Shown here in pieces: positions 24,853-40,249 of a DNA stretch of 45,564 nt. Numbering within the stretch: the stretch's first letter is position 1; each line of letters opens with the position of its first letter. A program made the position numbers and the translations under genes. The notes under the pieces are model-generated. The model did not search any database, was not told the origin of the DNA, and was given only the letters and a program-made list of their open reading frames with translations. This DNA is from Candidatus Zhuqueibacterota bacterium (GTDB lineage Bacteria > BS750m-G25): NCBI GenBank assembly GCA_016783505.1, contig JADHWK010000016.1, positions 1 to 45,564 of the forward strand, in the 5' to 3' direction.

Positions 24853-24928
24853 ACAGCTGAAGAGTCAGTGAAAAACGGTTGAGCTTAAACAAATGTCTAA
24901 ATTTAACTGCGGTAAAAATTTGTTCTCT

Positions 24929-25043: not shown

Positions 25044-25104
25044 TATCGGAAATTGCTGATTATTGTTAGAAGGGCGCAAAACAAAAATCTTCCAAAGGGA
25101 ATCC

Positions 25105-26550
25105 TTGATATCCAGTCCTGAAATAAATATAAGTTCCATCGGGCCGGAGCTGACTGTTTTGCTGACGGCCATCGTCATCCTGGTGGTTGATCGGTGGGTG
25201 GCGAAAAGGAAACCATGGTTGCCATTGGGGCTGGGACTGGCCGGGTTGGCCCTGGCCCTGGGGGTCACGTTGTCGTTATGGAATCAATCCCGGGCTGGGT
25301 TCGGGGGGCTGATCGCCGCCGATAACTATGCTCTGTTTTTTAACCTTATTTTTCTCATTGCTGCCGCCATGACCTTTCTGGTCTCAAGATTTTATCTGGA
25401 CCAGAACGGGATGCAGCGGGGTAAATATTATGTTTTGTTGCTCTTTGCCCTGCTGGGGATGATGGTAACAGCGTCAGGCACGGACCTGTTGACCATTTTC
25501 CTGGGCCTGGAAACCTCGGCCGTTTCCCTCTATGCCCTGGCTGGCTTTCTGCGGGGACGGGTAAAATCCAATGAATCGGCCCTGAAATATATTCTGCTGG
25601 GGGCCTTTTCTACCGGATTTTTTCTGTATGGGGTGGCGCTGGTTTACGGGGGCACGGGGACTACCAATCTGGGGAGAATTGCTGACCACTTAGCCAAGAC
25701 CGACCTTTTATCATCCTCAATAATGCTGGCGGGGATGGGGCTGTTGATAGTGGGGTTCGGCTTTAAGGTGGCGGCGGTGCCCTTTCATTTCTGGGCCCCC
25801 GATGTCTACGAAGGGGCCCCAACCCCGATAGCCGCCTTCATCTCGGTGGGTCCAAAGGCAGCGGCTTTCGCCGCATTCCTGCGGGTATTCAGCACGGCTC
25901 TGCCGGCCCTGAAGCCCCAATGGACCCCGGTGCTCTACGTATTAGCCATCCTGACTATGACCCTGGGGAACCTGGCGGCCCTATCCCAGTGGAACATCAA
26001 ACGGATGCTGGCCTATTCCTGTATCGCCCATGCAGGGTATGTGCTGGTGGCGTTGGTGGCCGGTGAGGAGTTAGGAAATGCCAGTGTCCTCTTCTATCTG
26101 TTCGTCTACAGCCTGATGAACCTGGGGGTCTTCACCATCGCCATCTTGATCAATCGAAGGGGGAAAGGGAATTACCATCTGAACGACTACGCCGGGCTGG
26201 GCACCAGCCATCCCCTCCTGGGGGCGGTCATGGCGCTGTTTATGCTATCGTTAGCGGGAATTCCCCCCACGGCCGGGTTCTTCGGTAAATTCTATATCTT
26301 CGCTGCCGCGGTTAAATCGGACTATATCTGGTTGGCGGCGATCGGAATTCTGAACTGGTTGGTTTCCGTCTATTATTATCTGCGAATCGTCGTCACTATG
26401 TATATGATAAAGCCGGAGATCGCCTTGAAAAGGGTCAGGGTAGTACCGGAATTTGTGGTGGTCCTTCTGGTTTCGGCCCTGGGGATCCTGGGGCTGGGCC
26501 TCTTTCCGTCCGGACTGATGTTCTTGGTGAAAAGCGCGGTGATTTTTTGA
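25105..26550 (+). CDS. nuoN: complex I subunit N
   Basis: LGLE, ESALKY, GFKVAAVPFHFWAPDVYEGAPTP, KRMLAYSCIAHAGY, GIPPTAGFFGK; likely TTG start 25105. Confidence 0.94.
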   Translation: MISSPEINISSIGPELTVLLTAIVILVVDRWVAKRKPWLPLGLGLAGLALALGVTLSLWNQSRAGFGGLIAADNYALFFNLIFLIAAAMTFLVSRFYLDQNGMQRGKYYVLLLFALLGMMVTASGTDLLTIFLGLETSAVSLYALAGFLRGRVKSNESALKYILLGAFSTGFFLYGVALVYGGTGTTNLGRIADHLAKTDLLSSSIMLAGMGLLIVGFGFKVAAVPFHFWAPDVYEGAPTPIAAFISVGPKAAAFAAFLRVFSTALPALKPQWTPVLYVLAILTMTLGNLAALSQWNIKRMLAYSCIAHAGYVLVALVAGEELGNASVLFYLFVYSLMNLGVFTIAILINRRGKGNYHLNDYAGLGTSHPLLGAVMALFMLSLAGIPPTAGFFGKFYIFAAAVKSDYIWLAAIGILNWLVSVYYYLRIVVTMYMIKPEIALKRVRVVPEFVVVLLVSALGILGLGLFPSGLMFLVKSAVIF

Positions 26551-27921: not shown

Positions 27922-28042
27922 GAGAAAGGCCAAAGGATTAAGAAATAGGATTTAGTGGCGAACTGTTACTTTAATTTTGAATATTTGTGCCGAACTTGAG
28001 AAATAATGTGTGAATAATAAAAGATTAGACGAGGGGAGTGAG

Positions 28043-28564
28043 ATGTTATCCAGAATGATTAAAGAGGAATTGATCCTTCTCGATCTGAAATCCAGGACAA
28101 AGGAAGAAATAATCGAAGAGATGGGCCACTTGTTTGTCCATTCCGGATCCATCTCGGACCTGGATGAATTCATCAGAACCATACAGGAGAGGGAGGCTAT
28201 TGAAAGCACGGCCATCGGCGGGGGCGTCGCCATTCCCCACGGGAGGTCGGGAGCGGTGGAGGAGTTGTGCATAGCCTTTGGTGGGTCCAAAACAGGGGTT
28301 GATTTTGGGTCCCTGGATGGAGAGCCCGTTCACCTGATCTTTATGATTGCCTCACCCCTGAGTGCCCCCGGGGAATACCTCCAGGCGGTGGCAAAGATCG
28401 CCCGATTCCTGAAGATGGAAGATTTGAAACATAAGTTGCTGGGCGCCAAAACGAAAGGGGATGTTCTGGAAGTCCTAAGGGAGTTCGATGCCAGGGTGCC
28501 AAGGAAGATCGAGGTAAAACCGAAGGAAGGAAGGACCATATATAAGTCGAAACAGGGAGATTAG
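28043..28564 (+). CDS. PTS EIIA (Ntr/fructose-type) domain protein
   Basis: EREAIESTAIGGGVAIPHGR (phospho-His), GVDFGSLDGEPVHLIF. Confidence 0.9.
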   Translation: MLSRMIKEELILLDLKSRTKEEIIEEMGHLFVHSGSISDLDEFIRTIQEREAIESTAIGGGVAIPHGRSGAVEELCIAFGGSKTGVDFGSLDGEPVHLIFMIASPLSAPGEYLQAVAKIARFLKMEDLKHKLLGAKTKGDVLEVLREFDARVPRKIEVKPKEGRTIYKSKQGD

Positions 28565-28565
28565 T

Positions 28566-28907
28566 ATGTATCTTCTAATTATAATACTCAATAAAGAGGA
28601 GTATCTCGGGGATCTCCTCTCGGTGCTCATCGAGCTGGGGGTGATGGATGCTACCATTGTGGACTCCGAGGCCATTGGTAAGGCCTTAGCGGTGAAGGTC
28701 CCCATCTTCGCGGGATTGCGTCTGCGGGGGGATCGGATATTTTCCAAGACCATCTTCGCCCTGGTGGAGGATAAGAACACCGGGGATGAAATCGTTCATC
28801 TATTAAAGGACATCGGTATAGATCTTCTGACACCGGGGGTGGGGAGGATCGTCACCATCAAGGTGGAGTCAGCCCTGGGAACCCCCTCGCCGCCGGATAT
28901 TGTGTGA
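28566..28907 (+). CDS. small PII/GlnB-like hypothetical protein
   Basis: YLLIIILNKEEYL..GVMDATIVDSE..KTIF..PGVG..VE pattern. Confidence 0.55.
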   Translation: MYLLIIILNKEEYLGDLLSVLIELGVMDATIVDSEAIGKALAVKVPIFAGLRLRGDRIFSKTIFALVEDKNTGDEIVHLLKDIGIDLLTPGVGRIVTIKVESALGTPSPPDIV

Positions 28908-28989
28908 TCCCGAGGAAAATCCTATGGATTTCTTAGTTCTATTAGGTTGGATAAAAATTTATTGAATCGGGTTAAACGGCCGGAGGACC

Positions 28990-30117
28990 ATGAAAAGACT
29001 ACGCACCTTTTTTAATGGAATTTATAAGCAGGCCAAAGAGAAGCCGGTCCTGCGTACCCTGATGCCCCTGATCCGGATGATGGACAACTTCATCTTCGAG
29101 TCCGGGGGGGTGGTGACTGATGCTCCCCTGATCCGTGATGGGATCGGCACGCAGCGGTTTATGTCCATGGTGATTGTGGCGATTGCCCCGGCCACCATCG
29201 CTTCGGTCTATTTCTTCGGCTGGCGTTCGCTGTCCGTGATTGCGGTCTCCTATATTTTTGGCGGGATAACCGAGATTATCTTCGCCATCGTCAGAAAGGA
29301 ATCTATCAACGAGGGGCTGCTGGTAACCGGGATACTCTTTCCCTTAACCCTGCCCCCAACTATCCCCCTTTGGATGGTGGCCGTGGGGGTTGTGGTTGGT
29401 GTGGCCCTGGGGAAGGAGGTGTTCGGGGGCACTGGGAAGAATATCTTCAACCCGGCGCTGGTGGGGAGGGTTTTCCTGGCCATCGCCTTTCCGGTGGAGA
29501 TGACTACCAAATGGACAGCACCTGTGGGCGGTTTCTGGGGTGGTTTTACAACTTATCTTCCCGATGCGGTCACCTCAGCTACACCCCTGACCATTTTCAA
29601 ATCAACCGGCCAGCTCACCACCAATCTGGATTTGCTGTGGGGCAATGTGGCCGGGAGCCTGGGGGAAACCTCCGCCCTCCTGCTCATATTGGGGGGCCTG
29701 TTCCTGATGCTGACTAAGGTGAGCAACTGGCGCATACCGGTGGGCTATCTGGGCTCGGCCTTTGCCTTCGGATGGGTTATGTGGCTGCTGGTTCCCCAAA
29801 AGTTTGCCCCCCCAGTATTTCAACTGCTATCCGGAGGGCTGCTTTTCGGAACCTTCTTCATGGCCACCGACCCGGTCTCGGCCCCCATAACGAACCTGGG
29901 AAGGTGGATATATGCCCTTTTGCTCGGTATCATTACCATCATTATTCGGGGGTTGAGCGGATATGTGGAGGGGGTGATGTTTGCCATTTTATTCATGAAC
30001 ATCTTTTCATCCTTAATCAATGACATGACCGTTCCCCTCATTGCCAGGCGCAGGGAGCGGAGGGTTAAAGCCTCACTGAGTGCACGTCTTGGGAGTCCCA
30101 AAAATCTAACGAAATAA
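28990..30117 (+). CDS. nqrB: NqrB/RnfD-family subunit
   Basis: NqrB-like N-terminal extension, GKEVFGGTGKNIFNPALVGR, FMN site TSATPL, GSLGETS, FMATDPVS. Confidence 0.85.
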   Translation: MKRLRTFFNGIYKQAKEKPVLRTLMPLIRMMDNFIFESGGVVTDAPLIRDGIGTQRFMSMVIVAIAPATIASVYFFGWRSLSVIAVSYIFGGITEIIFAIVRKESINEGLLVTGILFPLTLPPTIPLWMVAVGVVVGVALGKEVFGGTGKNIFNPALVGRVFLAIAFPVEMTTKWTAPVGGFWGGFTTYLPDAVTSATPLTIFKSTGQLTTNLDLLWGNVAGSLGETSALLLILGGLFLMLTKVSNWRIPVGYLGSAFAFGWVMWLLVPQKFAPPVFQLLSGGLLFGTFFMATDPVSAPITNLGRWIYALLLGIITIIIRGLSGYVEGVMFAILFMNIFSSLINDMTVPLIARRRERRVKASLSARLGSPKNLTK

Positions 30118-30266
30118 TGTTCTAAACAAGTATATCAGGTGATCAGGACATCAGTGGGAAGAATATTAGAAAATCAGGAGAACAGTATAGGATAGATGAG
30201 TTAAATGTTGCACGGAGAAAATAATCTGGTGTTCTGGTAACCTAATCCTCTTCCAACTGATTTACT

Positions 30267-30521
30267 GATCAGTCCGGCGTCAGTCGGGCGGGCCTATTGC
30301 AGAACTACCGCATCGGTCAGGCGCCCGACTGATAGGAATAAATTCCTATGCTAATCCAAATAAAGTATGTTGAAACATACTGTAATCAGTCCCGAAGTTT
30401 CGGGGCTTTCTTTGAAATAGCGTGATAATTTATTATCACGCAAATAGGAAACCAGTCCCAAGATCTTTACGACGATTTCAGAGTTGTGCCACAGGCCCGG
30501 GCGCCTGACCGACCTGACGGA
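30267..30521. mobile_element. MITE/REPIN-like composite element copy 2 (different interior)
   Basis: Same ends as 35107-35354; interior hairpins ATAGGAATAAATTCCTAT, AGTATGTTGAAACATACT, GCGTGATAATTTATTATCACGC. Confidence 0.75.
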
Positions 30522-30591
30522 TATTCTTATTTACTTTAATATCAGTAAAGGCCTAATGAAGAAAATGCGGCACTAAGTTCAGGAGGAACCC

Positions 30592-31203
30592 ATGACCAAA
30601 AAACTTAAGCAGAGATTGTGGATGATCGGTCTAATGGCCATAATGGGTGTTATTTCAGCTTCGCTTTTAGCCAGCATCTACCAGTATGCTCAACCCATCG
30701 TGGAACGGAACCGAAGGATTAAGCTCTATTCGGCGGTGCTGACCGTGTTGAGGGTTGATTATTCAATGCCGGATATGGAAGTAGTTTTTCAGGATAGGAT
30801 AAAAATTATCGAACAGGAGGGGCTGACCCTTTATGAAGGATATTCTGATAAGGGACGACTTTTAGGCTATGCCCTGCCCCTCAAGGGTGGGGGGTTCTGG
30901 GGGCCCATTGCCACGGTCCTCGGCCTTGAGCCCGACTGGGAGACCCTCAAAGGGATCGAGATTATTGAAAATGTGGAGACGCCGGGACTGGGTGCCCGGA
31001 TCACCGAACCGGCTTTTAAAGCCTCTTTTAGGGGGCTGAAGGCCACCCCCAACATCACTTATGTGCTGCATAAGGAGCCGGAAAGACCCAATGAATTTCA
31101 GGCCATAACCGGGGCCACAGAGACAAGTAAATCTATTGCCAGGATCTTTAACAAGGGGATCAGACAATATCGTGGAGTTTTTGAAATATCCCTTGCGCAA
31201 TGA
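30592..31203 (+). CDS. nqrC: NqrC/RnfG-family FMN-binding subunit
   Basis: GGGFWGPI, ETPGLGARI, FMN site ITGATETS. Confidence 0.85.
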   Translation: MTKKLKQRLWMIGLMAIMGVISASLLASIYQYAQPIVERNRRIKLYSAVLTVLRVDYSMPDMEVVFQDRIKIIEQEGLTLYEGYSDKGRLLGYALPLKGGGFWGPIATVLGLEPDWETLKGIEIIENVETPGLGARITEPAFKASFRGLKATPNITYVLHKEPERPNEFQAITGATETSKSIARIFNKGIRQYRGVFEISLAQ

Positions 31204-31334
31204 AAATTGAAAAGTGTCTCGAACATTCGGGGGAAAATGCAAAATAGTGAAGAACAAATAACTTTGCATTTTGATATTTTCATTTTTCAATCAAGCTTAT
31301 GCGTGCCGGTGCATATCATTTGGATAAAATAATT

Positions 31335-31504
31335 ATGGCAGAAAAATTAATCGTTGAAGGATTCAAACAATTTGGAGGAAAGCATTGCCAGACGACGTCA
31401 CTGAAGAATGTATCTCTTTACTAGACAATTTGAAACAGAAGATTATTGAATGTTATGAGATAGAAGAACGAGCATTTCAGATATTAAGTAATACTGTAAA
31501 ATGA
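31335..31504 (+). pseudogene. internally deleted BtrH-N/DUF4872-like remnant
   Basis: MAEKLIVEGFKQFGGKHCQTTSLKNV then frame-shifted tail IIECYEIEERAFQIL*. Confidence 0.4.
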
Positions 31505-31608
31505 AGTGGCAAAACAAGCCCAATAACAGATCAACTACGCCATTCCGATTATTAAAAATCCAATAGGAAAATGTATTATTTGGGCAAGGTGAATAGAAAG
31601 GAGATGCT

Positions 31609-32280
31609 ATGGCTGAAACTGGTATCCAAGTTCAAGCAATACCGATGGTGAAGCCCGGGTTGTCGCTCTGGCATAAGGTCAAAAAGAGCCGAAGTTACAC
31701 CGACTTAGTCAGGGGGCTGTGGGCGGATAACCCCACCTACCGCATGGTGCTGGGCATGTGTCCCACCCTGGCGGTGACCAATACCGCGGTGAACAGCGTG
31801 GCCATGGGTCTGGCCACCATGTCGGTTACCATCTTTAGCTCGGTCGCCATATCCATCATTCGCCGCATCATTCCCCGGCGGGTGCGTTTGGCGGTCTTTA
31901 TGATCATTATCGCCACCCTGGTCACCTTCGTGGATCTGTTTTTCAAAGCCGTCCTGCCGGACATCAGCGAAGCCCTGGGTGCCTATGTGGGGCTGATTAT
32001 CACCAATTGCATCATTCTGGGGCGGGCTGAGGCCTTTGCCTCGATCAACAAACCCTGGTACTCTTTCTTAGACGCCCTGGGAGTGGGACTGGGATTCACC
32101 GCTTCGCTTACCATTCTGGGCATGGTGCGGGAATTCTTAGGATTTGGCACCATCTTCTACCAGGAGGTCGCTGGCGCCGGTTGGACCGATTGGGCGATTA
32201 TGATCATGCCCCCGGGCGCCTTCTTAACCCTTGGGGTATTATATGGAATATTTAACAGCATCTCAAAACCTAAAGAATAG
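31609..32280 (+). CDS. NqrD/RnfE-family subunit
   Basis: DNP..LGMCPTLAVT, GLIITNCIILGRAEAFA, MPPGAF. Confidence 0.9.
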   Translation: MAETGIQVQAIPMVKPGLSLWHKVKKSRSYTDLVRGLWADNPTYRMVLGMCPTLAVTNTAVNSVAMGLATMSVTIFSSVAISIIRRIIPRRVRLAVFMIIIATLVTFVDLFFKAVLPDISEALGAYVGLIITNCIILGRAEAFASINKPWYSFLDALGVGLGFTASLTILGMVREFLGFGTIFYQEVAGAGWTDWAIMIMPPGAFLTLGVLYGIFNSISKPKE

Positions 32281-32289
32281 GAGTAGATA

Positions 32290-32871
32290 ATGGAAGCTTT
32301 TCTTATCATCATTGCCTCGATCTTTACCGCCAATATTGCCCTGTCCAATTTTCTAGGGATGTGCCCCTTCATCGCCATCTCCAAGGACTATCACTCAGCC
32401 ATCGGGATGGGTATGGCGGTCACCTTTGTCCTCACCATTACGGCAACCGCAAACTGGATTATTGACTATTATGTCTTGGTGCCACTGGGGGTGGGATATT
32501 TGCGCTTTGTCATCTTCATTATCGTGATCGCTGCCATGGTGCAGATCGTGGAGATGTTTATGGAACGGTTCTCCCCCACCCTGTACAATGCCCTGGGTAT
32601 TTTCCTGCCGCTAATCACCGTCAACTGTGCCATTTTGGGGGTTTCGCTATTTATGATTTTGCGTGAATATACCTTTATCAAGGCGGTGGCCTTCGGTTTC
32701 GGGGGAGGGGTGGGCTGGAGCTTGGCCATTATCGCTATGGCCAGTATTCGCAATCGGCTGCAATTTTCCAATGTCCCCCGTCAACTTCAGGGAGCCGGCA
32801 TTACTATGATCATCGCCGGAATGATGGCCCTGGGGTTTATGGGCTTTGCCGGTATGGTGCCTATTCAATAA
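32290..32871 (+). CDS. NqrE/RnfA-family subunit
   Basis: NIALSNFLGMCPFIAISK, FLPLITVNCAILG. Confidence 0.9.
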   Translation: MEAFLIIIASIFTANIALSNFLGMCPFIAISKDYHSAIGMGMAVTFVLTITATANWIIDYYVLVPLGVGYLRFVIFIIVIAAMVQIVEMFMERFSPTLYNALGIFLPLITVNCAILGVSLFMILREYTFIKAVAFGFGGGVGWSLAIIAMASIRNRLQFSNVPRQLQGAGITMIIAGMMALGFMGFAGMVPIQ

Positions 32872-32972
32872 TTGCAGAGGAAACAGGGATGATTATAAAC
32901 AGTTGCTTCAAGGTTGCACCTTGAAGTATTACAAAAAAGTTCAGGTTACACTATGGGTAGGTTTTAATAAAA

Positions 32973-33494
32973 ATGGCTGAATTTAAAGACAGACTTTATA
33001 TGGCCCTTGGTCGACTTACCGTCAATTACTCTTTACTTGAGGAGAATTTTATACTTTTGATTACCGCCCTGCTTGGTGTAGACTTTAAGATTGGAGACAT
33101 CATTACATGCAAACAGTCGTTTTCTGGCCTACTTAAACTATCAGACGCCCTCTTTAGGCAAAAGATAGATGACCAAGAGTTACTTGAACAGTTAAGGCTT
33201 GTGATAAACCAGGCAAGTAAATGCGCCGAACGACGGAATTCATTAATTCACTCAATGTGGTACTTTGCTGATCCTGAAATTGGAACGGTGCAGATTAAGA
33301 AGAAGGTAAAGATCGGCAAAGGATTTCAGGACACCTTCGACCCTGCTGATGTTGATGATATCAATGATCTAGTAAAATCAATAGAAGAGACAGTACTCGC
33401 TGTAACTGGGCTGCTTATTGAAACCGAACGAAAAGGGTTCATTCGCTTCTTTGATATACCATTTCAGGAAGACAAGACGCAAAATAAAACCTAA
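32973..33494 (+). CDS. HEPN-like hypothetical (cassette-like cargo)
   Basis: ALGRLTVNYSLLE..RRNSLIHSMW (Rx4H); stop codon overlaps ACCTAAC. Confidence 0.6.
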   Translation: MAEFKDRLYMALGRLTVNYSLLEENFILLITALLGVDFKIGDIITCKQSFSGLLKLSDALFRQKIDDQELLEQLRLVINQASKCAERRNSLIHSMWYFADPEIGTVQIKKKVKIGKGFQDTFDPADVDDINDLVKSIEETVLAVTGLLIETERKGFIRFFDIPFQEDKTQNKT

Positions 33495-33631
33495 CCTATC
33501 ACTTTTAACTTTAAGGTAAATAATTCTTTCAAGGTTCAACCTTGAAAGAACAAATGTTATGGAATTTTCACAAGATTCTCGTAAGATAAATTTATATTGC
33601 TATTTAACTAGTTTAAAAAACAGGAAGGATT

Positions 33632-35080
33632 ATGGAGCAACTGAAGATCAAGAAATCATTTCGGGGGGGGATGAAGCTCCCGAAGTTTAAGGGAATTCCT
33701 GATGCAAACATCACCGACTATTTCAGCTTGCCAGCGCTGGTGGTTATCCCTTTGAGGCGGGGGACCGGAGCGGTCAATGAGCCATTAGTTCAGGTGGGCG
33801 ATGAGGTCAGGACGGGGCAGGTCATCGCCTGCAATAACGGGGAGGTGGCCACTCCGGTTCATGCCAGCATCAGCGGCAAGGTAGTGGCTATTGAGAAGAG
33901 ACTCCATCCGACCCAAAAGCCCACCCTGTCGGTGGTGATTGAGGGGGACGGCAGGGATGAGTGGATGAAAACGGCCGAAGAAAAAAGGGCGTGGGAGGAC
34001 CGCACTTCTGAGGAAATCGGTAAAGTGCTCTATGAAGCCGGGGTTACCGGGGGGGGCAAGGGGGGGTTCCCCACCGCTTACCGTTCATCTGAAGTTCCGC
34101 CCGAACAGATTCATACCCTGGTCATCAACGCTATCGAGACCGACCCCTATCTGGTGGCCAACCAACAAATCGTTCTTGATAAGCAGGATGAGTTTTTGCA
34201 GGGCATACGGATTCTTCGCAGGGCCCTGGGGGATGTGGTGGTGCTTTTGGGCGTTGATGTGAAAGACCAGGGATTGGGTAAGCCGCTTTCCGAAAATGCT
34301 AAGGATTGGCCCTGGCTGACCCTCTGTCCACTTCGGGCAAAGTATCCCCAGGGTGAGGAGGAGATTCTTCTCGGCACTTTGTTGAATATTAATCTGCCCG
34401 GCGGTAAAACCCCCGTTGATGCCGGGGTGGTGGTTCAGGATGCGGCCCAAGTGCTGGCGGCCTATGAAGCAGTAGCGCTGGGCAAGCCATTTATTGAAAG
34501 GACGATATCCGTCGGCGGAGATGGGGTAAATTCCCCAAGGAATTTGAAGGTTAGGGTGGGAACGCCCATCCGAGCTATCGCCGATGAATTGGCCCCCAAC
34601 ATCCCCCTGCGGGTAGCCATGAACGGTCTCCTCAAGGGAGTGTATGTGAAGAATTTAGAATCACCCGTCCTGCGGGAGACCGCCGGGCTGACCCTTCTGA
34701 CCGCGTATGATGATCGAACACCTTTCTATTTTGTGAGGATGGGGTTAAATACGTTTTCCTATACCCGTTCGTTTATTTCCCTCCTCCCGGAAAAACCTGT
34801 CGAGCCCAGGCTGCGCGGGGAGGAGCGCGCCTGCCTTAGTTGCGGTTACTGTATTGACGTCTGTCCGGTGGGGCTGGTGCCCACCTACCTGGCCCGATAT
34901 GCTGAAAAAAAGATGTGGGATGAGGCTCAGGAACTGGACATCCTGGCGTGTATTGACTGCAATCTGTGCAGCTATGTGTGCCCGTGTAAGATTTCCCTGG
35001 CGGAACAGATAAAAAAGGGGAAGAGAAGAGTCGCCAAGAAGTTGGCAAAAGAGGAGGCTGCTCAAGCGGCTGTTAGCTAA
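33632..35080 (+). CDS. RnfC/NqrA-intermediate subunit with 2x[4Fe-4S] motifs
   Basis: PVHASISGKV, GGFPT, NAIETDPYL, KYPQGEE, TFSYTRSF..GEERACLSCGYCIDVCP, CIDCNLCSYVCP. Confidence 0.88.
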   Translation: MEQLKIKKSFRGGMKLPKFKGIPDANITDYFSLPALVVIPLRRGTGAVNEPLVQVGDEVRTGQVIACNNGEVATPVHASISGKVVAIEKRLHPTQKPTLSVVIEGDGRDEWMKTAEEKRAWEDRTSEEIGKVLYEAGVTGGGKGGFPTAYRSSEVPPEQIHTLVINAIETDPYLVANQQIVLDKQDEFLQGIRILRRALGDVVVLLGVDVKDQGLGKPLSENAKDWPWLTLCPLRAKYPQGEEEILLGTLLNINLPGGKTPVDAGVVVQDAAQVLAAYEAVALGKPFIERTISVGGDGVNSPRNLKVRVGTPIRAIADELAPNIPLRVAMNGLLKGVYVKNLESPVLRETAGLTLLTAYDDRTPFYFVRMGLNTFSYTRSFISLLPEKPVEPRLRGEERACLSCGYCIDVCPVGLVPTYLARYAEKKMWDEAQELDILACIDCNLCSYVCPCKISLAEQIKKGKRRVAKKLAKEEAAQAAVS

Positions 35081-35106
35081 ACAGTAAAGAGCACATTGGG
35101 AAATCC

Positions 35107-35354
35107 GATCAGTCCGGCGTCAGTTAGGCGGGTCTGTGGCACAACTTAAAGATCCTTTATTTTCCGTTTGAAGATCTTGCCTGCTCAACAAGGGCCAAAA
35201 CCTATCCCGAAGCATCGGGATAAGGTTCTGGTTAAGGCCATCTTTAACAACTATTTAACCAGAACCGCTCTTTAGAGCGGTTCTAAACATAACCCCTAAA
35301 TTATCAATTGCGATAGTTGTGCCACAGGCCCAGGCGCCTGACTGACCTGACGGA
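35107..35354. mobile_element. MITE/REPIN-like composite element copy 3
   Basis: Ends as 30267 copy, interior as 13383 copy. Confidence 0.78.
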
Positions 35355-35409
35355 AGCACGATCCCGAAACTTCGGGACAAAATACAAAGCAACAATAAAA
35401 ACAGCGACA

Positions 35410-35462
35410 GGAGTTACCCCGGAGCTTCGCGGTTTATGATAAACCGCTGAAGCGGTAACTCC
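35410..35462. repeat. branched hairpin repeat; related copy at 41718-41770
   Basis: GGAGTTACC..CGGTTTATGATAAACCG..GGTAACTCC vs GAGTTACC..GGTTTAGGATAAACC..GGTAACTTC. Confidence 0.6.
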
Positions 35463-35761
35463 AAATTTCACTGAAAAGATTTGGAACAGGAATCAACGGA
35501 ACTTACGAATATTTGTGGCTCTCTCGCTCCCGGTGGATGTCGCCTGCCCGCCATCCCGAAGCTTCGGGATAGTGGTGAGTCATCCGCCGGAAATCCTGTG
35601 GTATCAATATAATAGTCGAGGATGACAATATCCTCGACGAGCATGGATGGTGTCATTATAATGATTACTTTTTAAAATGGTTTAGGGTTTAGTATTTTCA
35701 ACGTTAGCAATTTTTACCAAAATTTAGTTAGGATAATATGGTAATTTAAGGAGATATTACC

Positions 35762-36844
35762 ATGGGACCGATAGTTACGCCAATAGTCGTTTTGAGCTCC
35801 GTTGGGGCTGGTCTGGCCATTATCTTGGTTCTGGCGGAGAAGTATTTAGCCAGTTATGGGGAATGTCGCATCAAGGTGAAGGGAGAGAAGGAGATCGTGG
35901 TGGAGGGCGGGGGCACCCTGCAGGCGAGCTTGACGGATAACGGGGTTTTTGTCCCTTCCGCCTGCGGGGGAAAGGGAACCTGTGGAACCTGCAAGGTTCA
36001 GATATTCAATAAAGGCGCCGGTGAGCCCCTGGCCACTGAGATTCCCTATCTCTCCAAGGAAGACCTGGAAAACGGTTTTCGCCTCTCCTGTCTGGTGAAG
36101 GTGAAAAATGATCTGGAAGTTTCTGTCCCCAAGATCCATGAGTTCAGGACTATCGTTACAAAGATCGAGGACCTCACCCACGACATAAAGTCCATTATCT
36201 TTGAGTTGCAGGATGGCGAGACCATTGATTTCAAGCCGGGGCAGTATGTGATGATGCGCATGCCGGGCACCGAGGAGGAGCCGGTGATGCGGGCATATTC
36301 CATTGCTTCAAAGCCCTCGGACAACCATGTCGTCGAGCTCCTCATCCGATTGGTACCCGGGGGATTGATGACCACTTATGTCTTTACCGAGTTAAAAGTG
36401 GGGGACGAAGTCTACCTCTCCGGACCATACGGAGAATTTTACCTGCGGGATTCCGACAAAGATATCATCTGCGTTGGCGGGGGCTCCGGGGTGGCACCCA
36501 TCAAGTCCATCATTACCCATCTCTTCGAAAAGGACACCGACAGGAAAGTAACCTATTATTTTGGGGCCCGGGCGGTGAAGGATCTTTATTTCTACAAAGA
36601 ATGTCTTGAGTTGAAGGAGAAATATCCGAACTTCAGATTTATTACCGCCCTCTCTGATTTGGATGAAGGCGACCAATGGGACGGGGACACCGGGTTTATC
36701 CATCTGGTGATAGACAAATATTTAGAGGATGGGGAAGACATGGAGAGCTACATGTGCGGCCCGCCGCCGATGATTGATGCCGCCATTGATATGCTGGTGG
36801 AAAAGGACATGGATGAAGATGATATTTATTTTGACAAGTTCTGA
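35762..36844 (+). CDS. nqrF: NqrF-like [2Fe-2S]/FAD/NADH reductase subunit
   Basis: N-terminal TM, SACGGKGTCGTCKV..RLSC, RAYSIAS, GPYGEF, GGGSGVAP, YMCGPPPM, FDKF. Confidence 0.9.
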   Translation: MGPIVTPIVVLSSVGAGLAIILVLAEKYLASYGECRIKVKGEKEIVVEGGGTLQASLTDNGVFVPSACGGKGTCGTCKVQIFNKGAGEPLATEIPYLSKEDLENGFRLSCLVKVKNDLEVSVPKIHEFRTIVTKIEDLTHDIKSIIFELQDGETIDFKPGQYVMMRMPGTEEEPVMRAYSIASKPSDNHVVELLIRLVPGGLMTTYVFTELKVGDEVYLSGPYGEFYLRDSDKDIICVGGGSGVAPIKSIITHLFEKDTDRKVTYYFGARAVKDLYFYKECLELKEKYPNFRFITALSDLDEGDQWDGDTGFIHLVIDKYLEDGEDMESYMCGPPPMIDAAIDMLVEKDMDEDDIYFDKF

Positions 36845-36856
36845 GCGAAAAAGGCC

Positions 36857-36885
36857 TTGAAAAATCGGCCAGCAAATTGTATATT
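36857..36885 (+). promoter_or_regulatory. sigma70-type promoter of V/A-ATPase operon
   Basis: TTGAAA-17 bp-TATATT upstream of first ATPase gene. Confidence 0.45.
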
Positions 36886-36896
36886 GAGGTGACCGA

Positions 36897-37226
36897 ATGG
36901 AGAAGACGAAAATGCCCATAGACCTGATTCGCCAGGTCAAGGAGGCCGAAGTTCAAGGCCAGAAATCGGTTGAGGGGGCCAGGAGGGAAGCGGGGGGGAT
37001 AGTGGAGAAGGCAAGGCAAGTCACGGTGGACCTTCTGGAGGGTGCAAAGCGAGAGGCCAAGGAAATGGAGAAAAGATTGATAAAGGAGAGAACCCTTAAA
37101 GCACAAGAAGAGGTCGAATCGCTTAAGAAGGCTAATAAAAAGAAGATTGAAGAGCTTCGGGACCAGGCGGCTAAGAACATGGAAAGGGCGGTTTCCTTTA
37201 TCGTGGATAAGATTTCCGGTGGTTAG
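36897..37226 (+). CDS. V/A-type ATPase subunit H(G)
   Basis: Charged coiled coil IRQVKEAE..AVSFIVDKI, first in operon before subunit I. Confidence 0.8.
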   Translation: MEKTKMPIDLIRQVKEAEVQGQKSVEGARREAGGIVEKARQVTVDLLEGAKREAKEMEKRLIKERTLKAQEEVESLKKANKKKIEELRDQAAKNMERAVSFIVDKISGG

Positions 37227-37355
37227 CAAAATAAGTTTTTATTATAATCAGCCTAACTCAACCCTTTGAAATATATCCATTCAAGACCTTCAAGCCCTGA
37301 ACATTTTTTGGTCCCTCTTTACGAGTTTTATTGGTAGTCGTTAGGGTAAGAATAA

Positions 37356-37631
37356 ATGTTTAATCCTGAGATTTTCATTAGAAATGCAAGAGAGCTAATA
37401 AATAAATCTATCTCACGTAATATAAAGAAATTTATCTCAAAAAATGATAGATGGATTGCTGTATGGGATAAATCATTAAATCTTGTTGGATTTTATCAAT
37501 TCAATATTTCAAAGGATGGAGAAAAACTATTTTGTCATTTTAGAACACTCTATCCTTTTGTCAGGGCATTTGAAGTAACGCCAAAAATTTTGGGTAAAAA
37601 CTGGGAATTTATGGAGAAAAATATTTGGTAA
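37356..37631 (+). CDS. AT-rich hypothetical (inserted cargo)
   Basis: 91-aa ORF between ATPase H and I, preceded by GTTAGGG. Confidence 0.45.
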   Translation: MFNPEIFIRNARELINKSISRNIKKFISKNDRWIAVWDKSLNLVGFYQFNISKDGEKLFCHFRTLYPFVRAFEVTPKILGKNWEFMEKNIW

Positions 37632-37682
37632 ATTGTATGTAACTATTAAATTCGTGAATAATAAAATTATATAAGGAGAAAG

Positions 37683-39656
37683 ATGGCTGTCAGCCGGATA
37701 AAAAAAATTCACCTCCTAGGCCACATCACAGCACGAGAGAGGATAGTGGATGCCTTAAGGAAGATGGGGGTTCTTCAGATAACGGATCTAAAAAAGCGAC
37801 TGATTGAGGAAGATGTAAAAATAATAGATGAGAAGGGGATAGAAGATCCCGATTTAGAGGCACGATTATCCAGGCTTCAATATATGGTAGAATTTATTTC
37901 GGGTTTTCAAGAGAAACCGAAGATGCTGGAGACCATGCTTAACCCAAAGCTGATCATCGGTGAAGATGAGCTTAAAAATGTTGCTGAGAACTTTAATGTA
38001 GACGAAATGTATCGGCGGTATTCCGAGCTTGAAAACAAAATCAAGGAGGCCGAAAGTGAAAAGAGTAGAAAAGAATCATTGTTGAAGGATCTGATACCCT
38101 GGGCGGCATTGGACATTCCCCTACAGGAGATAGCTGACACTGAAAAAACCTGTATCTCTTTGGGCATTATTAAAACCCAGTCCTTCCCAATTTTGCAAGA
38201 AGGATTGGCTCAAATTACAGGGGAGCTTCATCTCGATATAGTGGAAACCATCAAAACCTTGACCTATTTCGTTCTGATATTTTCCAGGGATTATGAAGGC
38301 CAGATACTGGAGGTTTTGAAGAAAGAGAACGGGCGATTGGTAAAATTCGAGGGGCTCATCGGTATCCCCAGGAAAGTTATCGAGGAAATAGAATATGAAC
38401 TGGAGGATATTGAAAAACAGCTCCTAGCTTATAAAAAAGAAGGGGAGGAATTAGCCTCAGAGAAAGATAAGGTTTTAATTGCATATGATTATCTCTCAGA
38501 GCTCCTGGCGAAGAAGAAGGTTCAGAACAATTTTGCCCATACCGCTGAAACCTTCGTGATTGAAGGATGGATCCGCGAGAAGGACGAAGAAGTAATCCGT
38601 CAGCGGTTGTCCCGAATCTCCCCGGAGATCGAGATAATCGCTCTTCCACCCGGGGAAGATGACAAACCCCCCATCGCATTGGAAAATAAATCTTATGTTA
38701 CCCCGTTTGAATTCGTCACCACCCTATACGGGCGGCCGCTCTATCGGGAGTACGATCCCACCCCCCTGTTGGCCCCGTTTTTTATTCTCTTCTTTGCCCT
38801 GTGCCTCACCGATGGCGGCTATGGCTTGACCCTGGCGGCCCTGGCCCTCCTGGGTATGAAGAAATTAAAAGGCGGCCCAGGGGTAACCAAGCTCTTCAGG
38901 CTGATGTTCTTCGGCGGTCTGATTACCGCAGTGGTGGGACTTTTTACGGGGGGTTGGTTTGGAATTGAAACCGGGGTTCTCCCATCGGCATTGCGGAAAG
39001 TGATCCTCCTGAATCCCCTTGAAGACCCCATGAAGATGCTAAATCTGGCCTTTGCATTGGGAATATTGCAGATTTTCTTCGGGATCGGGATAAAGATGTA
39101 CAGTAACATCCGGGCGGGAAAGGTAGTTGCCGCCCTGCTCGATCAGGGGTTGTGGCTGGTCTTTCTGACCTTTTTGGTGCCCTTAGGTTATAGCCTTATC
39201 CTGGGGGGAGAGGTCAGCCAGGGAATTTTGTCGGTGGCCCAAAAAGGGGCTCTATATGGTGTGATTCTTTTGGTTTTAACCCAGGGCCGGCGTCAGAAAA
39301 ATCCGGTAATGAAGCTGCTGGCGGGGGTGGCCAAATTGTACGACGTGGTGGGTTATTTCGGCGATGTGTTGTCCTACGCCAGGCTTTTGGCCTTGGGTCT
39401 GGCAACCAGTGCCATTGGCTTAGCTATCAATGGTATTGCCAAGATGGCCCTGGGTATGCCCTATTACATCGGTTATGTGGTGGCCCTGTTCGTTTTAGTC
39501 GGCGGTCACCTCTTCAATTTGGCAGTGAATACCCTGGGGGGATTCGTCCACTCCGGGAGGTTGCAGTATCTGGAGTTCTTTTCCAAATTCTTTGAAGGCG
39601 GGGGTGCTGAGTTTAAGCCTTTTAAGGAGGAGACGAAATATACTGTAGTGAAGTAA
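37683..39656 (+). CDS. atpI: V/A-type ATPase subunit I (a)
   Basis: YGRP.Y.EYDPT, DGGYG, GDVLSYARLLALGL, HSGRLQYLEFFSKFFEGGG. Confidence 0.96.
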   Translation: MAVSRIKKIHLLGHITARERIVDALRKMGVLQITDLKKRLIEEDVKIIDEKGIEDPDLEARLSRLQYMVEFISGFQEKPKMLETMLNPKLIIGEDELKNVAENFNVDEMYRRYSELENKIKEAESEKSRKESLLKDLIPWAALDIPLQEIADTEKTCISLGIIKTQSFPILQEGLAQITGELHLDIVETIKTLTYFVLIFSRDYEGQILEVLKKENGRLVKFEGLIGIPRKVIEEIEYELEDIEKQLLAYKKEGEELASEKDKVLIAYDYLSELLAKKKVQNNFAHTAETFVIEGWIREKDEEVIRQRLSRISPEIEIIALPPGEDDKPPIALENKSYVTPFEFVTTLYGRPLYREYDPTPLLAPFFILFFALCLTDGGYGLTLAALALLGMKKLKGGPGVTKLFRLMFFGGLITAVVGLFTGGWFGIETGVLPSALRKVILLNPLEDPMKMLNLAFALGILQIFFGIGIKMYSNIRAGKVVAALLDQGLWLVFLTFLVPLGYSLILGGEVSQGILSVAQKGALYGVILLVLTQGRRQKNPVMKLLAGVAKLYDVVGYFGDVLSYARLLALGLATSAIGLAINGIAKMALGMPYYIGYVVALFVLVGGHLFNLAVNTLGGFVHSGRLQYLEFFSKFFEGGGAEFKPFKEETKYTVVK

Positions 39657-39670
39657 AGTGAAAACAATCT

Positions 39671-39997: not shown

Positions 39998-40249
39998 CAA
40001 AATACTCCTAAATTCTTCAGACATGAGTTCATCTTGGATACGTCCTAATTAAAAGAAAGATCTTTCAGTTGAGATAACGGTGATTGATAACCAAAAGTTT
40101 AACATTTGGTGAAACAATATAAATAGGATACAGAACCCTTTACTGGATTAGTGCATCTGAAGTTTCTGAGTCAAAAGGCCTTAAGACTGCAGAGGGAATT
40201 CTTGGTAAAAGAGAGTGATTTATCTTAATTAAGCGTAGGAGATACTCAA

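Follow-up and report, generated by a model that had tools for sequence, protein, structure and literature searches.

A candidate early-branching redox pump of the Na+-NQR lineage with an RnfC-like A subunit in Candidatus Zhuqueibacterota

The closest structurally described relatives of the locus reported here are the Na+-NQR of Vibrio cholerae (7XK3, 8A1T/8A1U) and the Rnf complexes of Acetobacterium woodii and Clostridium tetanomorphum (9ERI, 7ZC6). In the sections of the literature cited here, NqrA is described as lacking any redox cofactor (PMC12174285), and the quinone site as formed by two conserved glycines on helix III of NqrB (PMC4014512). NQR-like nqrBCDEF operons without nqrA occur in Clostridium ultunense, Pseudothermotoga lettingae and Alkaliphilus metalliredigens, with an acceptor that the authors call unknown in the part of that paper cited (PMC5924567). 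Prevotella (Segatella) bryantii, per the excerpts cited, pairs a menaquinone-reducing canonical NQR with quinol:fumarate reductase (PMC10739449, PMC8516057).

We analyzed a gene cluster within a window of 45,564 nucleotides (contig JADHWK010000016.1, positions 1-45,564). The genes present, their motifs and domain scores and the placement in trees were all obtained directly; they suggest, with a probability of roughly 0.55, that the cluster specifies a redox pump of six subunits that descends from Rnf, belongs to the NQR lineage and split off before all other sampled NqrF-bearing complexes, with menaquinone as the likeliest acceptor. As in V. cholerae, there are six homologous subunits: F is an NqrF-type input module with a membrane anchor and 2Fe-2S, FAD and NADH domains, B and C bear flavinylation motifs, D and E hold four Cys between them, the NqrB Gly-Gly pair is found in B, and A has the Nqr-specific insertion. 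Unlike in the V. cholerae enzyme, the cluster A retains two 4Fe-4S motifs and an FMN-domain remnant, F lacks an insertion of ~30 aa, B lacks ~40 N-terminal residues, the genes run B-C-D-E-X-A-F, the products stay below every NCBIfam Nqr cut-off, and the complex lies outside the canonical clade. Shared with Rnf are homologous core subunits (D, G, E, A), an Rnf-like first Cys motif in D and an A subunit nearest to RnfC; in contrast to Rnf, NqrF replaces RnfB, the FMN/NAD motifs of A are degraded and accompanied by the Nqr-side insertion, B and C carry Nqr-type motifs, and the cluster falls outside the Rnf clade. The operons without nqrA, of which we consider our type IV loci (L164-L168) to be examples, resemble the cluster in their compact NqrF (~365 aa), in having B first and in belonging to anaerobes that also hold Rnf. 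In type IV, A is gone and B has lost its N-terminal arm (~39 residues remain), whereas the cluster keeps both; type IV also forms a derived clade near canonical NQR, and the cluster a basal branch.

Gene content and subunit signatures

The cluster and its context comprise the following features.

14526-21232, + strand: canonical rnfC-D-G-E-A-B operon (context); 6/6 products above NCBIfam rnf cut-offs
28990-30117, + strand: B subunit (NqrB/RnfD homologue), 375 aa, membrane subunit; TSAT, NqrB-type Gly-Gly pair
30118-30591, no strand: B-C spacer, 474 bp; dispersed repeat of ~250 nt, core 30267-30521
30592-31203, + strand: C subunit (NqrC/RnfG homologue), 203 aa; N-terminal membrane helix, FMN_bind, TGAT
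31609-32280, + strand: D subunit (NqrD/RnfE homologue), 223 aa; both Cys, intramembrane Fe-S site
32290-32871, + strand: E subunit (NqrE/RnfA homologue), 193 aa; both Cys, intramembrane Fe-S site
32973-33494, + strand: ORF X, family unknown, 173 aa, between E and A; CAAGGTT..AACCTTG hairpins on its flanks
33632-35080, + strand: A subunit (RnfC/NqrA homologue), 482 aa; 2 CxxCxxCxxxCP, degraded FMN/NAD domain
35081-35761, no strand: A-F spacer, 681 bp; dispersed repeat of ~230 nt, 35107-35354
35762-36844, + strand: F subunit (NqrF homologue), 360 aa; hydrophobic N-terminus, 2Fe-2S, FAD and NAD(H) domains

The initial annotation had read an operon ordered B-C-D-E-A-F without rnfB, next to a complete Rnf. 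The six ORFs match that order, with ORF X additionally between E and A; no RnfB-like ORF occurs among the cluster ORFs, and the full Rnf set lies 8 kb upstream. ORF X and the long B-C, C-D (405 bp) and A-F spacers are absent from the annotation's list. Its picture of two evolutionary states side by side holds for adjacency but not as a snapshot of duplication, since the adjacent Rnf subunits are only 30-44% identical to the Nqr-like subunits of the cluster and the Rnf B, D and E equivalents nest inside the Rnf clade in our trees. Judged by sequence, the neighboring Rnf is an ancient paralogue of the cluster rather than its parent.

Subunit B matches PF03116 (353.5 bits) and scores 288 against nqrB (TIGR01937, below the cut-off of 349.9) and 282.7 against rnfD (TIGR01946, above 207); its matches to V. 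cholerae NqrB (7xk3_B) and RnfD (7zc6_D) reach 209.8 and 194.4 bits. The NQR-like signatures attributed to B and C are present: B has GKEVFGGTG, together with the Nqr-side ATDPV, and C has GGGFWG, an instance of G.G(F/L)WG. Gly91 and Gly92 of B align with G140/G141 of V. cholerae NqrB, which we take to be the residue numbers of the quinone-site glycines; the pair is found in the cluster B and in none of the Rnf rows (0/16). B does have the claimed N-terminal extension when compared with RnfD: 86 residues precede the Gly-Gly motif, against a median of 55.5. Canonical NqrB has a longer one (median 129), and in the five operons lacking A the arm measures ~39 residues. For C, PF04205 gives 48.7 bits, and nqrC (77.3) and rnfG (71.9) both stay below their cut-offs.

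Subunits D and E keep all four Cys and, as described initially, both show the Rnf-like LGMCP. D (PF02508, 203.9) scores 213.7 with rnfE (cut-off 213.4) and 180.3 with nqrD (below 244.85), and combines an Rnf-like LGMCPTLAV with an Nqr-like ITNC. E (PF02508, 194) scores 233.3 with nqrE (below 247.55) and 229.3 with rnfA, equal to the cut-off. The F subunit is indeed a compact reductase with an anchor, with Fer2, FAD_binding_6 and NAD_binding_1 behind a hydrophobic N-terminus, and has the Cys4 2Fe-2S and RAYS motifs; the insertion of canonical NqrF was not found in it. It scores 286.7 with nqrF (TIGR01941, below 295) and 184.6 with BenC, and matches V. cholerae NqrF (8a1t_F) at 226.7 bits.

The A subunit is the most RnfC-like among the NqrF-bearing operons sampled. 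The HMM comparison proposed at the outset gave 322.2 for rnfC (TIGR01945, above 245.95) and 95.8 for nqrA (TIGR01936, below 321), and matches to RnfC in the Protein Data Bank reach 229 (9eri_C) and 226 bits, against 63 for NqrA (7xk3_A). An AlphaFold 2 model (pLDDT 83) is closest in fold to RnfC (TM 0.78-0.87), with Foldseek E-values of 1e-37 for RnfC and 1e-25 for NqrA. Both CxxCxxCxxxCP motifs are there, with 8/8 cluster cysteines, as are the two further features singled out before: NAIETDPYL, where the neighboring RnfC reads NGAECEPYL, and the segment TFSYTRSFISLL...GEERA. An insertion of ~35 aa (residues 359-399) is shared with all Nqr-side rows and none of the Rnf rows (0/16). The FMN/NAD domain scores 86.6 against PF01512, versus 184.8 in the adjacent RnfC.

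Predicted electron path and acceptor

By analogy with solved homologues, from which the electron path, Na+ coupling and quinone acceptor are carried over, NADH would be oxidized at the FAD of F. Single electrons would pass from the 2Fe-2S center of F to the intramembrane Fe-S center of D/E, onward to the covalent FMN of C at the outer face, and then to the covalent FMN and riboflavin of B, with the electron loop driving Na+ out of the cell. Menaquinone would be the likeliest final acceptor, bound at B near the B/A interface, with A held on the N-terminal arm of B. In A, the pair of 4Fe-4S clusters and the half-decayed FMN/NAD pocket, derived from RnfC, would constitute a retained side branch.

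For the acceptor, left open in the initial annotation, several lines point to a quinone. Besides the Gly-Gly pair of B, the genome holds a MenA-like prenyltransferase above the TIGR00751 cut-off, a long-chain polyprenyl-diphosphate synthase adjoining apbE, and a complete membrane-anchored SdhCDAB. A genome check for apbE and quinone biosynthesis had been suggested: ApbE is present. MqnA/D, NuoH, cytochrome bd, NrfD, cytochrome b and a MenB above cut-off were not found in the recovered genome (59.9% complete), so the case for a quinone pool rests on the MenA-like protein, the prenyl synthase and SdhCDAB. In the next-deepest relative (L090), a UbiE/MenG-type methyltransferase and a polyprenyl synthase lie directly upstream, and type III operons begin with Rieske and cytochrome b genes. 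The Prevotella bryantii NQR is a possible functional analogue, as a presumed anaerobe would here unite an NQR-type pump with a naphthoquinone prenyltransferase and a membrane enzyme of the SdhCDAB/Frd type; that NQR is canonical, and menaquinone reduction by the cluster product, like a fumarate reductase role of the Sdh, is a prediction. In keeping with Na+ coupling, a Na+/H+ exchanger gene lies upstream of the cluster and a V-type ATPase operon downstream. The ATPase K subunit best matches NtpK of the Na+-ATPase of E. hirae and keeps all five residues at positions that align with what we take to be the NtpK Na+ site.

It is conceivable, though unlikely, that A is instead a working flavin/nucleotide module. 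The complex would then have two nucleotide sites, in F and A, and might act as a Na+-coupled transhydrogenase-like enzyme or pass electrons from NADH through the A clusters to a soluble acceptor rather than a quinone. A does keep the Gly-rich loop with FPT (GGGKGGFPTAYR), E-T-D-P-Y for E-C-E-P-Y, YPQGEEE and every cluster cysteine, and is the Nqr-side A nearest to RnfC by tree and fold. Its nucleotide/flavin motifs are almost identical to those of type III A, which has about the same PF01512 scores (84.8 and 88.9) and is presumably still active, as type III lacks any other NAD(H) module. However, true RnfC scores twice as high (168-185), the RnfC stretches HVK and QNVGT are changed, the SLBB model no longer matches, and B already has the Nqr-type Gly-Gly pair. 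A conserved gene for a candidate soluble partner was not found beside the cluster. Furthermore, two NAD(H) sites of equal potential would provide no driving force unless NADPH were involved, and F gives no sign of NADPH preference, as judged by eye from its motifs.

The menaquinone reading has its own difficulty, in that the eight retained cysteines of A are without explanation if electrons leave at B. Their retention runs through the whole grade of related loci, including the near-canonical L140, although most grade loci were found via patterns from these same cysteine motifs and only six are free of that bias.

Integrity of the locus

The layout is disrupted in a manner seen in 0/43 related loci: repeats and a foreign ORF lie within the operon, and A, usually the first gene, has moved to between E and F. 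The spacer repeats (230-250 nt) belong to families D4 and D6 in the B-C spacer and to D1, D2, D4 and D6 in the A-F spacer, with copies on many contigs of the genome; blastn gave 44 and 49 match lines, respectively, counting all pieces, some only ~30 nt. ORF X has no Pfam or NCBIfam match, its protein atlas matches are 'hypothetical protein' clusters only, and none of the related loci yielded a homologue. The hairpins on its flanks recur across the genome. ORF X is probably an insertion, not a pump subunit.

These features, along with three long spacers, two of them with mobile-looking repeats, and the availability of a second intact ion pump in Rnf, could indicate a decaying remnant that has lost its function. 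We regard this as very unlikely: ORF inspection revealed no frameshift or stop in the six pump genes, all cofactor-binding motifs checked are intact, and branch lengths are ordinary (0.42-0.50, versus medians of 0.3-0.48). Spacers are equally long in the adjacent, clearly canonical Rnf operon, and the same sequence recurs without a difference in runs of two studies. None of the RNA runs contained the stretch, a result that weighs neither for nor against function.

Still less probable is that misassembly at the repeats placed A between E and F in a true A-B-C-D-E-F or B-C-D-E-F operon. The zero-difference Logan contigs from both studies (28500-30361, 30483-33547, 33523-35218 and 35434-37300) do have gaps or junctions at 30361-30483, near 33535 and at 35218-35434, and only at repeats; there the A piece (33523-35218) is linked to its neighbors solely via repeat sequence. 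Yet a separate public metagenome record (L170, 3521 bp) is identical to 33444-36964, covering the last part of ORF X, all of A, F and some sequence beyond. The depth of the A piece approximates that of its neighbors in both runs (68 vs 67-70 and 16 vs 19-20), and no gene directly upstream of B could be a second A.

Position between Rnf and Na+-NQR

We built trees of B+D+E (63, 68 and 34 rows), A (62 rows) and F (44 rows, including two BenC-like outgroups). Rooting on Rnf is an assumption whose only backing is the NuoF-like, cofactor-bearing state of RnfC. All trees place the cluster outside both Rnf and canonical NQR, and the six subunits do not jointly fall inside either clade. With B, D and E concatenated, the Rnf clade (100/100) splits off first, then the type III complexes of Bipolaricaulota/Fraserbacteria, then the cluster, ahead of all remaining Nqr-side complexes. 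The node that leaves out type III has 97/93 support and the one that leaves out the cluster 100/99, and the canonical NQR clade (100/100) is nested far inside. An AU test did not separate the possible orders of cluster and type III (p = 0.072); the cluster would be one of the two earliest branches between Rnf and canonical NQR. In the A tree it is the Nqr-side sequence nearest to Rnf, and in the F tree it belongs to the basal, unresolved part of the NqrF clade; among the sampled complexes, it is the deepest NqrF-bearing branch.

That the cluster is simply an ordinary Rnf or Na+-NQR, intermediate only in look through divergence, is scarcely credible: its products reach or exceed the rnfC, rnfD, rnfE and rnfA models and come close below the nqrB, nqrE and nqrF cut-offs, but the absence of RnfB and presence of NqrF exclude Rnf, the iron-sulfur A, the failure of all products (0/6) to reach an Nqr equivalog cut-off and the missing NqrF insertion exclude canonical NQR, and both clades form at 100/100 without it.

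The transitional character proposed initially is thus borne out as a mixture of states in motifs, insertion and domain scores. The cluster is one member of a widespread iron-sulfur-A grade, of which we found no description in the literature, and not a unique relic. With motifs and trees placing the pump between Rnf and Na+-NQR, the cluster keeps an intermediate stage of one respiratory enzyme turning into another.

Gene content and surroundings of the cluster

The proposal that the Nqr-like cluster is an Rnf-to-NQR transitional complex is supported by its tree position and its mixed characters, which mark it as a variant within the Rnf/Nqr family. Homologues of NqrA to NqrF are encoded together, judged by the best NCBIfam and Pfam matches of six ORFs. 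The claim of a six-gene cluster without rnfB was confirmed, as 28990-36844 holds no RnfB-like ORF and the sole rnfB of the window (20195-21232) belongs to the upstream operon. The order B-C-D-E-A-F given in the initial annotation also stood, save that it had passed over an ORF, here called X, between E and A.

Features of the cluster and the neighbouring Rnf operon
28990-30117, + strand: B subunit, NqrB/RnfD homologue (NCBIfam, Pfam)
30592-31203, + strand: C subunit, NqrC/RnfG homologue (NCBIfam, Pfam)
31609-32280, + strand: D subunit, NqrD/RnfE homologue (NCBIfam, Pfam)
32290-32871, + strand: E subunit, NqrE/RnfA homologue (NCBIfam, Pfam)
32973-33494, + strand: ORF X, 173 aa, between E and A (no family match)
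33632-35080, + strand: A subunit, RnfC/NqrA homologue (NCBIfam, Pfam)
35762-36844, + strand: F subunit, NqrF homologue (NCBIfam, Pfam)
14526-21232: rnfC-D-G-E-A-B operon, all six products above the NCBIfam rnf cut-offs

ORF X matched no family in Pfam, NCBIfam or the protein atlas, and none of the related loci has an equivalent ORF; the CAAGGTT..AACCTTG hairpins that flank it occur repeatedly in the genome. Repeats of 230-250 nt lie in the spacers B-C and A-F, each query giving more than 40 blastn match lines, some short, on many contigs; by blastn against the genome, the C-D spacer is unique sequence. Three 39-41-aa peptides in the latter had no Pfam match at E ≤ 1, and the idea that its small ORFs are remnants of a degraded gene was dropped accordingly. 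At least two families of such MITE-like intergenic repeats are dispersed in the genome (window 13370-13636, 30267-30521 and 35107-35354, and many other contigs); some matches are only ~30 nt long, and public contigs end at the repeats.

The assembly was checked against other data. Another public record has the identical sequence over 33444-36964, a span reaching from the end of X across A to F and further, and run contigs from two studies show zero differences over 28500-30361, 30483-33547, 33523-35218 and 35434-37300, breaking at repeats only. The B-C joint is supported by the window's own assembly and by universal B-C synteny. An X-less allele, suggested by read joints that skip ORF X or join repeats, was rejected: the joint sides span 20-35 letters and were read as other repeat copies. 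No Rfam family was found in 13000-37500, and promoter and terminator scans gave no signal above shuffled expectation.

The neighbouring Rnf shares 33, 39, 30, 42 and 44% identity with window A, B, C, D and E, respectively, and its subunits nest within the Rnf clade beside Omnitrophota sequences. Adjacency therefore reflects clustered ion-motive machinery and not a fresh duplication; of the earlier picture of the two states side by side, what holds is their proximity. The same stretch encodes nuoJ, K, L, an M/N-like gene, a Na+/H+ exchanger, a PTS-EIIA-like gene and a V-type ATPase operon. Nuo, exchanger, EIIA and ORF X are not conserved beside Rnf/Nqr-like operons in other loci, where no Nuo module is linked to Rnf either. 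The nuoJ, nuoK, nuoL and M/N-like antiporter genes directly follow rnfB (21286-26550), with a DUF6883 ORF (24261-24593) between L and M/N that has copies of a 90-nt direct repeat on either side (24058-24147 and 24938-25027, 81% identical). Between exchanger and B (28010-28907) lie the PTS-EIIA(Ntr)-like gene and an ORF of 113 aa that matches no family; both may be regulators of ion-transport genes. The ATPase operon lies directly downstream of the cluster (36897-44913). Its K subunit (40250-40720, 156 aa) best matches the E. hirae Na+-ATPase subunit NtpK (124.5 bits) and has the same residues at the positions aligned with NtpK L61, T64, Q65, Q110 and E139, which we take to be the Na+ site. Elsewhere in the window, 8001-12000 is low in GC (0.36-0.375 vs ~0.5 around), and ORFs at 8536-9438, 9609-10544 and 10625-11068 are without Pfam matches.

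Sequencing runs in which at least 94% of the sampled words of the stretch occur carry the labels of aquatic and marine metagenomes, and no RNA run is listed as containing it. A metagenome scan for relatives returned a single identical record of 3.5 kb and, besides it, only a relative at 32%. The SHMT of the window shares 69-73% identity with proteins named Calditrichaeota, Neomarinimicrobiota, Bacteroidota and Caldithrix, and contig C30 of the source genome encodes a T9SS sorting-domain protein; together, these are a weak hint at the FCB group. On another contig of the same genome (G000 C84, 38954-40755), a CpaM-type corrinoid-protein-associated methyltransferase (296 bits) adjoins an HgcAB-like fusion protein (468 bits).

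Related loci and operon types

A protein search with window A ranked ~55 clusters above ordinary RnfC, at 34-50% identity and mostly 465-530 aa long, with P0002 the nearest (50%); their source names are either RnfC or NqrA. We collected 80 loci by scanning genomes with an alignment of A relatives and peptide patterns of the two Cys motifs, a procedure that is therefore uninformative on how often the motifs are lost. The A gene is closer to window A than to window RnfC in 43 of the 80. An A with the Nqr-side insertion described below and both 4Fe-4S motifs likewise occurs in 43/80 loci of this Cys-patterned fetch, and the window cluster fits the same Fe-S-A NQR grade, in which such an A accompanies B, C, D, E and an NqrF-type F. 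A unbiased counterpart used the nqrA model on 301 genomes, with 22 over the cut-off and 8 under it; seven of the latter, the window included, have Nqr-side operons with both motifs, and one has an Rnf. Six genomes besides the window, of 300, thus carry an Fe-S A found free of Cys-motif bias. The comparison genomes (40, then 300) are related to the source at domain level only.

Operon types among the related loci
Type I: A-B-C-D-E-F with compact NqrF; Omnitrophota, Planctomycetota including a Brocadiia MAG, Tissierellales, Dethiobacter, Eisenbacteria, Bipolaricaulota
Type Id: a more NqrA-like sub-group inside type I
Type II: A-B-C-D-E, then an NqrF-like anchor with 2Fe-2S domain, NuoE, NuoF, HoxU-like; Spirochaetota, Pirellulales, scanned genome G006
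Type III: Rieske and cytochrome b genes, then A-B-C-D-E, then a small 2Fe-2S and RnfB-type PF04060 protein, then a 2Fe-2S protein with a cytochrome b C-terminal-like part; Bipolaricaulota, Fraserbacteria
Type IV: B-C-D-E-F without A

B comes immediately after A in 42 of the 43 related loci, and the remaining one shows A alone. In none of the 43 does A follow E, so the window's gene order is a local rearrangement. In type II (loci L016 from G006, L027, L028, L036, L038, L047 and L065), the 2Fe-2S domain is free or fused to NuoE, and NADH input is predicted to be through a NuoEF-type module that replaces the FNR-type part of NqrF. Type III comprises L018, L021, L022 and L024, together with L017, L020 and L041, which are without C, D and E genes. 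Its cytochrome b gene is of the N-terminal, b6-like kind, its small protein (212-267 aa) combines Fer2 with PF04060, and its last protein (~350 aa) combines Fer2 with the cytochrome b C-terminal-like part. From this domain content, type III seems to couple a Rieske/cytochrome b unit to a core of Rnf/Nqr type, with the small protein resembling a chimera of RnfB and NqrF; a paper on Oman Acetothermia, in its passages on these genes, labels them Rnf/RnfC only. Type IV (L164-L168, from G027, G123, G054, G127 and G103) has a B without the N-terminal arm, with ~39 residues before the GG motif vs 86 in the window. It is a derived clade near canonical NQR, and its absence of A is therefore a loss; nqrBCDEF without nqrA also appears for Clostridium ultunense and Pseudothermotoga lettingae in part of an earlier genome paper (PMC5924567). 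Separately, an RnfC-like gene followed by an RnfD-like gene was seen in Bacteroidota (L040, L055, L071, L085, L088, L096) and Leptotrichiaceae (L037, L049, L056, L068), with no G, E or A homologue beside these pairs at E ≤ 1e-8.

Character states and phylogenetic position

None of the six products reached its NCBIfam Nqr equivalog cut-off (TIGR01936-TIGR01941; score/cut-off for A 95.8/321, B 288/349.9, C 77.3/144, D 180.3/244.85, E 233.3/247.55, F 286.7/295). The rnf subfamily models, which are broader, were passed or just met by A (322/246 for rnfC, TIGR01945), B (283/207), D (213.7/213.4) and E (229.3/229.3), with C below at 72/102. Solved structures place A closer to RnfC (229, 226 and 193 bits) than to V. 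cholerae NqrA (63 bits), B marginally closer to NqrB (210 bits) than to RnfD (194 bits), and F with V. cholerae NqrF (226.7 bits), oxygenase reductases trailing at 137-151. An AlphaFold model of A (pLDDT 83, pTM 0.85) ranks structures in the same way: RnfC (E 1e-37 to 1e-34, TM 0.75-0.87), NqrA (E ~1e-25, TM 0.72-0.78), then NuoF (~1e-10).

The smaller subunits mix the two families. The NQR-like signatures noticed at the outset in B (GKEVFGGTG) and C (G.G(F/L)WG) are indeed present and distinguish every Nqr-side group, including the window, from Rnf, as do ATDPV(S/T) and a Gly-Gly pair in B. This pair, located in NqrB helix III and linked to quinone binding, is G91/G92 in the window, aligned with G140/G141 of the V. 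cholerae Na+-NQR structure (7xk3_B), and is absent from 16/16 Rnf rows. The reading of D as Rnf-like held for its first Cys motif, CPTLAV; its second, ITNC, is Nqr-like. Covalent-FMN threonine motifs occur in B (TSAT) and C (TGAT), from which flavinylation is predicted. F is compact, as had been noted, and has the NqrF layout of membrane anchor, Fer2, FAD_binding_6 and NAD_binding_1. It lacks the ~30-aa insertion of V. cholerae NqrF, which is found in 12/12 NQR-group rows and in the related loci L034 and L143, and is absent from 5/5 type IV rows, the remaining rows of types I and Id, and both BenC-like outgroups. This distribution suggests that the insertion was acquired late in the Rnf-to-NQR series.

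The A subunit carries most of the argument. Window A retains both CxxCxxCxxxCP motifs, with all eight Cys, and a PF01512 match of 86.6 bits, and so differs from cofactor-free NqrA. Its NADH/FMN region has diverged, as first proposed: relative to RnfC, the PF01512 score is halved, the SLBB model is without a match, and the HVK and QNVGT stretches are altered. The "NqrA-like segment" proved to be an insertion of ~35 aa that lies between the SLBB-like domain and the ferredoxin domain (PG..DSYT..F...K..T.L.GE.R), present in every Nqr-side row and in 0/16 Rnf rows; in window A (residues 361-397), it is the low-confidence part of the AlphaFold model.

Character states of A (motifs; cluster cysteines; Pfam score, with PF01512 the FMN-binding domain model)
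Rnf: GxGGAxFPTHVKL, NGAECEPY, KYPQGxEKQL in 13/16 rows (L050, L070 and L077 have degraded motifs); 8 Cys in all 16; PF01512 168-185 bits
Window: Gly-rich loop GVTGGGKGGFPTAYRS, NAIETDPYL, KYPQGEEEIL; 8 Cys; PF01512 as in the text
Type III: GGQAGFPTAF, NAIETEPY, KYPQGDDAVL; 8 Cys; PF01512 84.8 and 88.9 bits
Types I and II: Gly-rich loop SLDREGIPTHFKS, HGVGSEPYN, KYPQGYDEVL; 8 Cys; PF01512 57.9, 57.4, 49.3, 47.5, 32, 25.3, 18.5 bits, none
Type Id: GAWQF-FYDAHTG, LEPF, YPYD; 8 Cys; PF01512 none, NqrA second-domain model emerging at 30-32 bits
L140, near-canonical: both Cys motifs kept; NqrA second-domain model 40 bits
Canonical NQR: GLWTA-LRxRPFS, TAMDTNPLA, PHPAGLVGTH; cluster Cys lost; NqrA second-domain model 144-203 bits

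The Pfam score order of A parallels the order of motif states across groups. Among 11 operons that pass the nqrA model, 10 are without either complete Cys motif and one, L138, keeps the second; most canonical rows show an LCTYVCP remnant alone. The loci form a stepwise series between Rnf and NQR in which the FMN-domain score drops in steps and the Fe-S motifs are lost last. The window operon stands at or next to the base of this series, its A the most RnfC-like among the NqrF-bearing operons seen here.

Trees (IQ-TREE, LG+C20 PMSF) were built for concatenated B+D+E by quick searches of 63 and 68 rows, leaving out one type I locus without D, and by a careful search of a 34-row subset picked after the quick tree was seen. 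The topology was Rnf | (type III, (window, (L090, (other type I/II clades, (L034, type IV, (type Id, canonical NQR)))))), L090 being a deep relative. In the careful tree, UFBoot/SH-aLRT support was 100/100 for Rnf vs the rest, for type III and for canonical NQR, 97/93 for the node excluding type III and 100/99 for the node excluding the window. Nesting in a canonical Nqr or Rnf clade, which would have spoken against a transitional complex, was not seen in the B+D+E, A or F trees: at least three supported nodes separate the window from canonical NQR, in agreement with the A and F trees, and the Rnf clade forms without the window's Nqr-like subunits (100/100 for B+D+E, 99 for A). An AU test did not reject a clade of window and type III (delta lnL 8.2, p 0.072), so that the window either branches first or second or is the sister of type III. 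In the A tree (62 rows; two short ones dropped), the window stands next to Rnf (94), followed by type III (split 99), types I and II, and type Id with NQR. The F tree (44 rows with two long-branch BenC-like outgroups; type III rows and fragments under 250 aa excluded, one over-extended ORF trimmed) recovers an NqrF clade (95) with the window in an unresolved base and canonical NQR nested inside. Rooting on Rnf is an assumption, backed by the cofactor-bearing state that RnfC has in common with NuoF. On these trees, the window cluster is the deepest of the NqrF-bearing branches seen here, and its operon is rearranged.

Electron acceptor and significance

Presence and absence below concern the recovered part of the source genome, which is 59.9% complete. 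The suggested search for apbE and quinone biosynthesis succeeded in part. ApbE is encoded on contig C73 (297 bits), adjoining a long-chain polyprenyl-diphosphate synthase, and a MenA-like prenyltransferase exceeds the TIGR00751 cut-off (114.5 > 102.15), yet falls below those of PRK06080; MqnA/D, MenB over the cut-off and full-length UbiE/MenG were not found in the recovered 59.9%, nor were NuoH, cytochrome bd, NrfD and cytochrome b. A complete SdhC-SdhD-SdhA-SdhB set lies beside a fumarate hydratase subunit. In L090, quinone-biosynthesis genes lie upstream of the operon. We favour a naphthoquinone as the probable acceptor, with the Gly-Gly pair of B, the quinone genes of L090 and the Rieske/cytochrome b genes of type III all pointing this way. 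Such an enzyme would resemble the menaquinone-dependent pairing of NQR with fumarate reductase described for Prevotella (PMC10739449, PMC8516057).

A live rival is that A would hold a working nucleotide site. All eight A cysteines are kept throughout the grade, which speaks against a simple quinone picture, and the flavin and nucleotide motifs of window A are nearly identical to those of type III, in which A is the only candidate NAD(H) site. Taken further, the window could be the earliest surviving stage after NqrF replaced RnfB, with A still binding FMN and pyridine nucleotide and two nucleotide sites joined by a Na+-coupled loop; the enzyme would then be a Na+-translocating NAD(P)H/NAD(P)+ transhydrogenase, or a dual-exit complex with quinone and nucleotide acceptors. 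We regard this extended version as unlikely. To our knowledge, neither activity is known for any Rnf/Nqr-type complex.

A naphthoquinone-reducing window enzyme remains our preferred reading, and the series bears on how NQR arose. In the accepted account, as passages of two articles give it (PMC4014512, PMC12174285), the rnf operon was duplicated, rnfB was lost, an oxygenase reductase was recruited, and RnfC decayed to a cofactor-free NqrA; the latter, a 2025 review, presents NqrA as without any redox cofactor. This account was inferred from two end states only. We found no description or published name for an Fe-S NqrA or a graded Rnf-to-Nqr series in the full-text literature, with subscription journals outside its coverage. 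The "Nqr/Rnf-like complex" of PMC11334425 was set aside as a precedent, being, in the passage concerned, a different, two-subunit system. Genome papers, at least in the relevant passages, label such operons Nqr or Rnf without comment (e.g., PMC5924567).

These findings call for caution in annotation, as such operons are not simply "Nqr" or "Rnf". Its position at or next to the base and its most RnfC-like A among NqrF-bearing operons make the window operon a good candidate for expression and structure work. The role of the retained clusters, the onset of quinone reduction and the use of another acceptor by intermediate enzymes become accessible questions.
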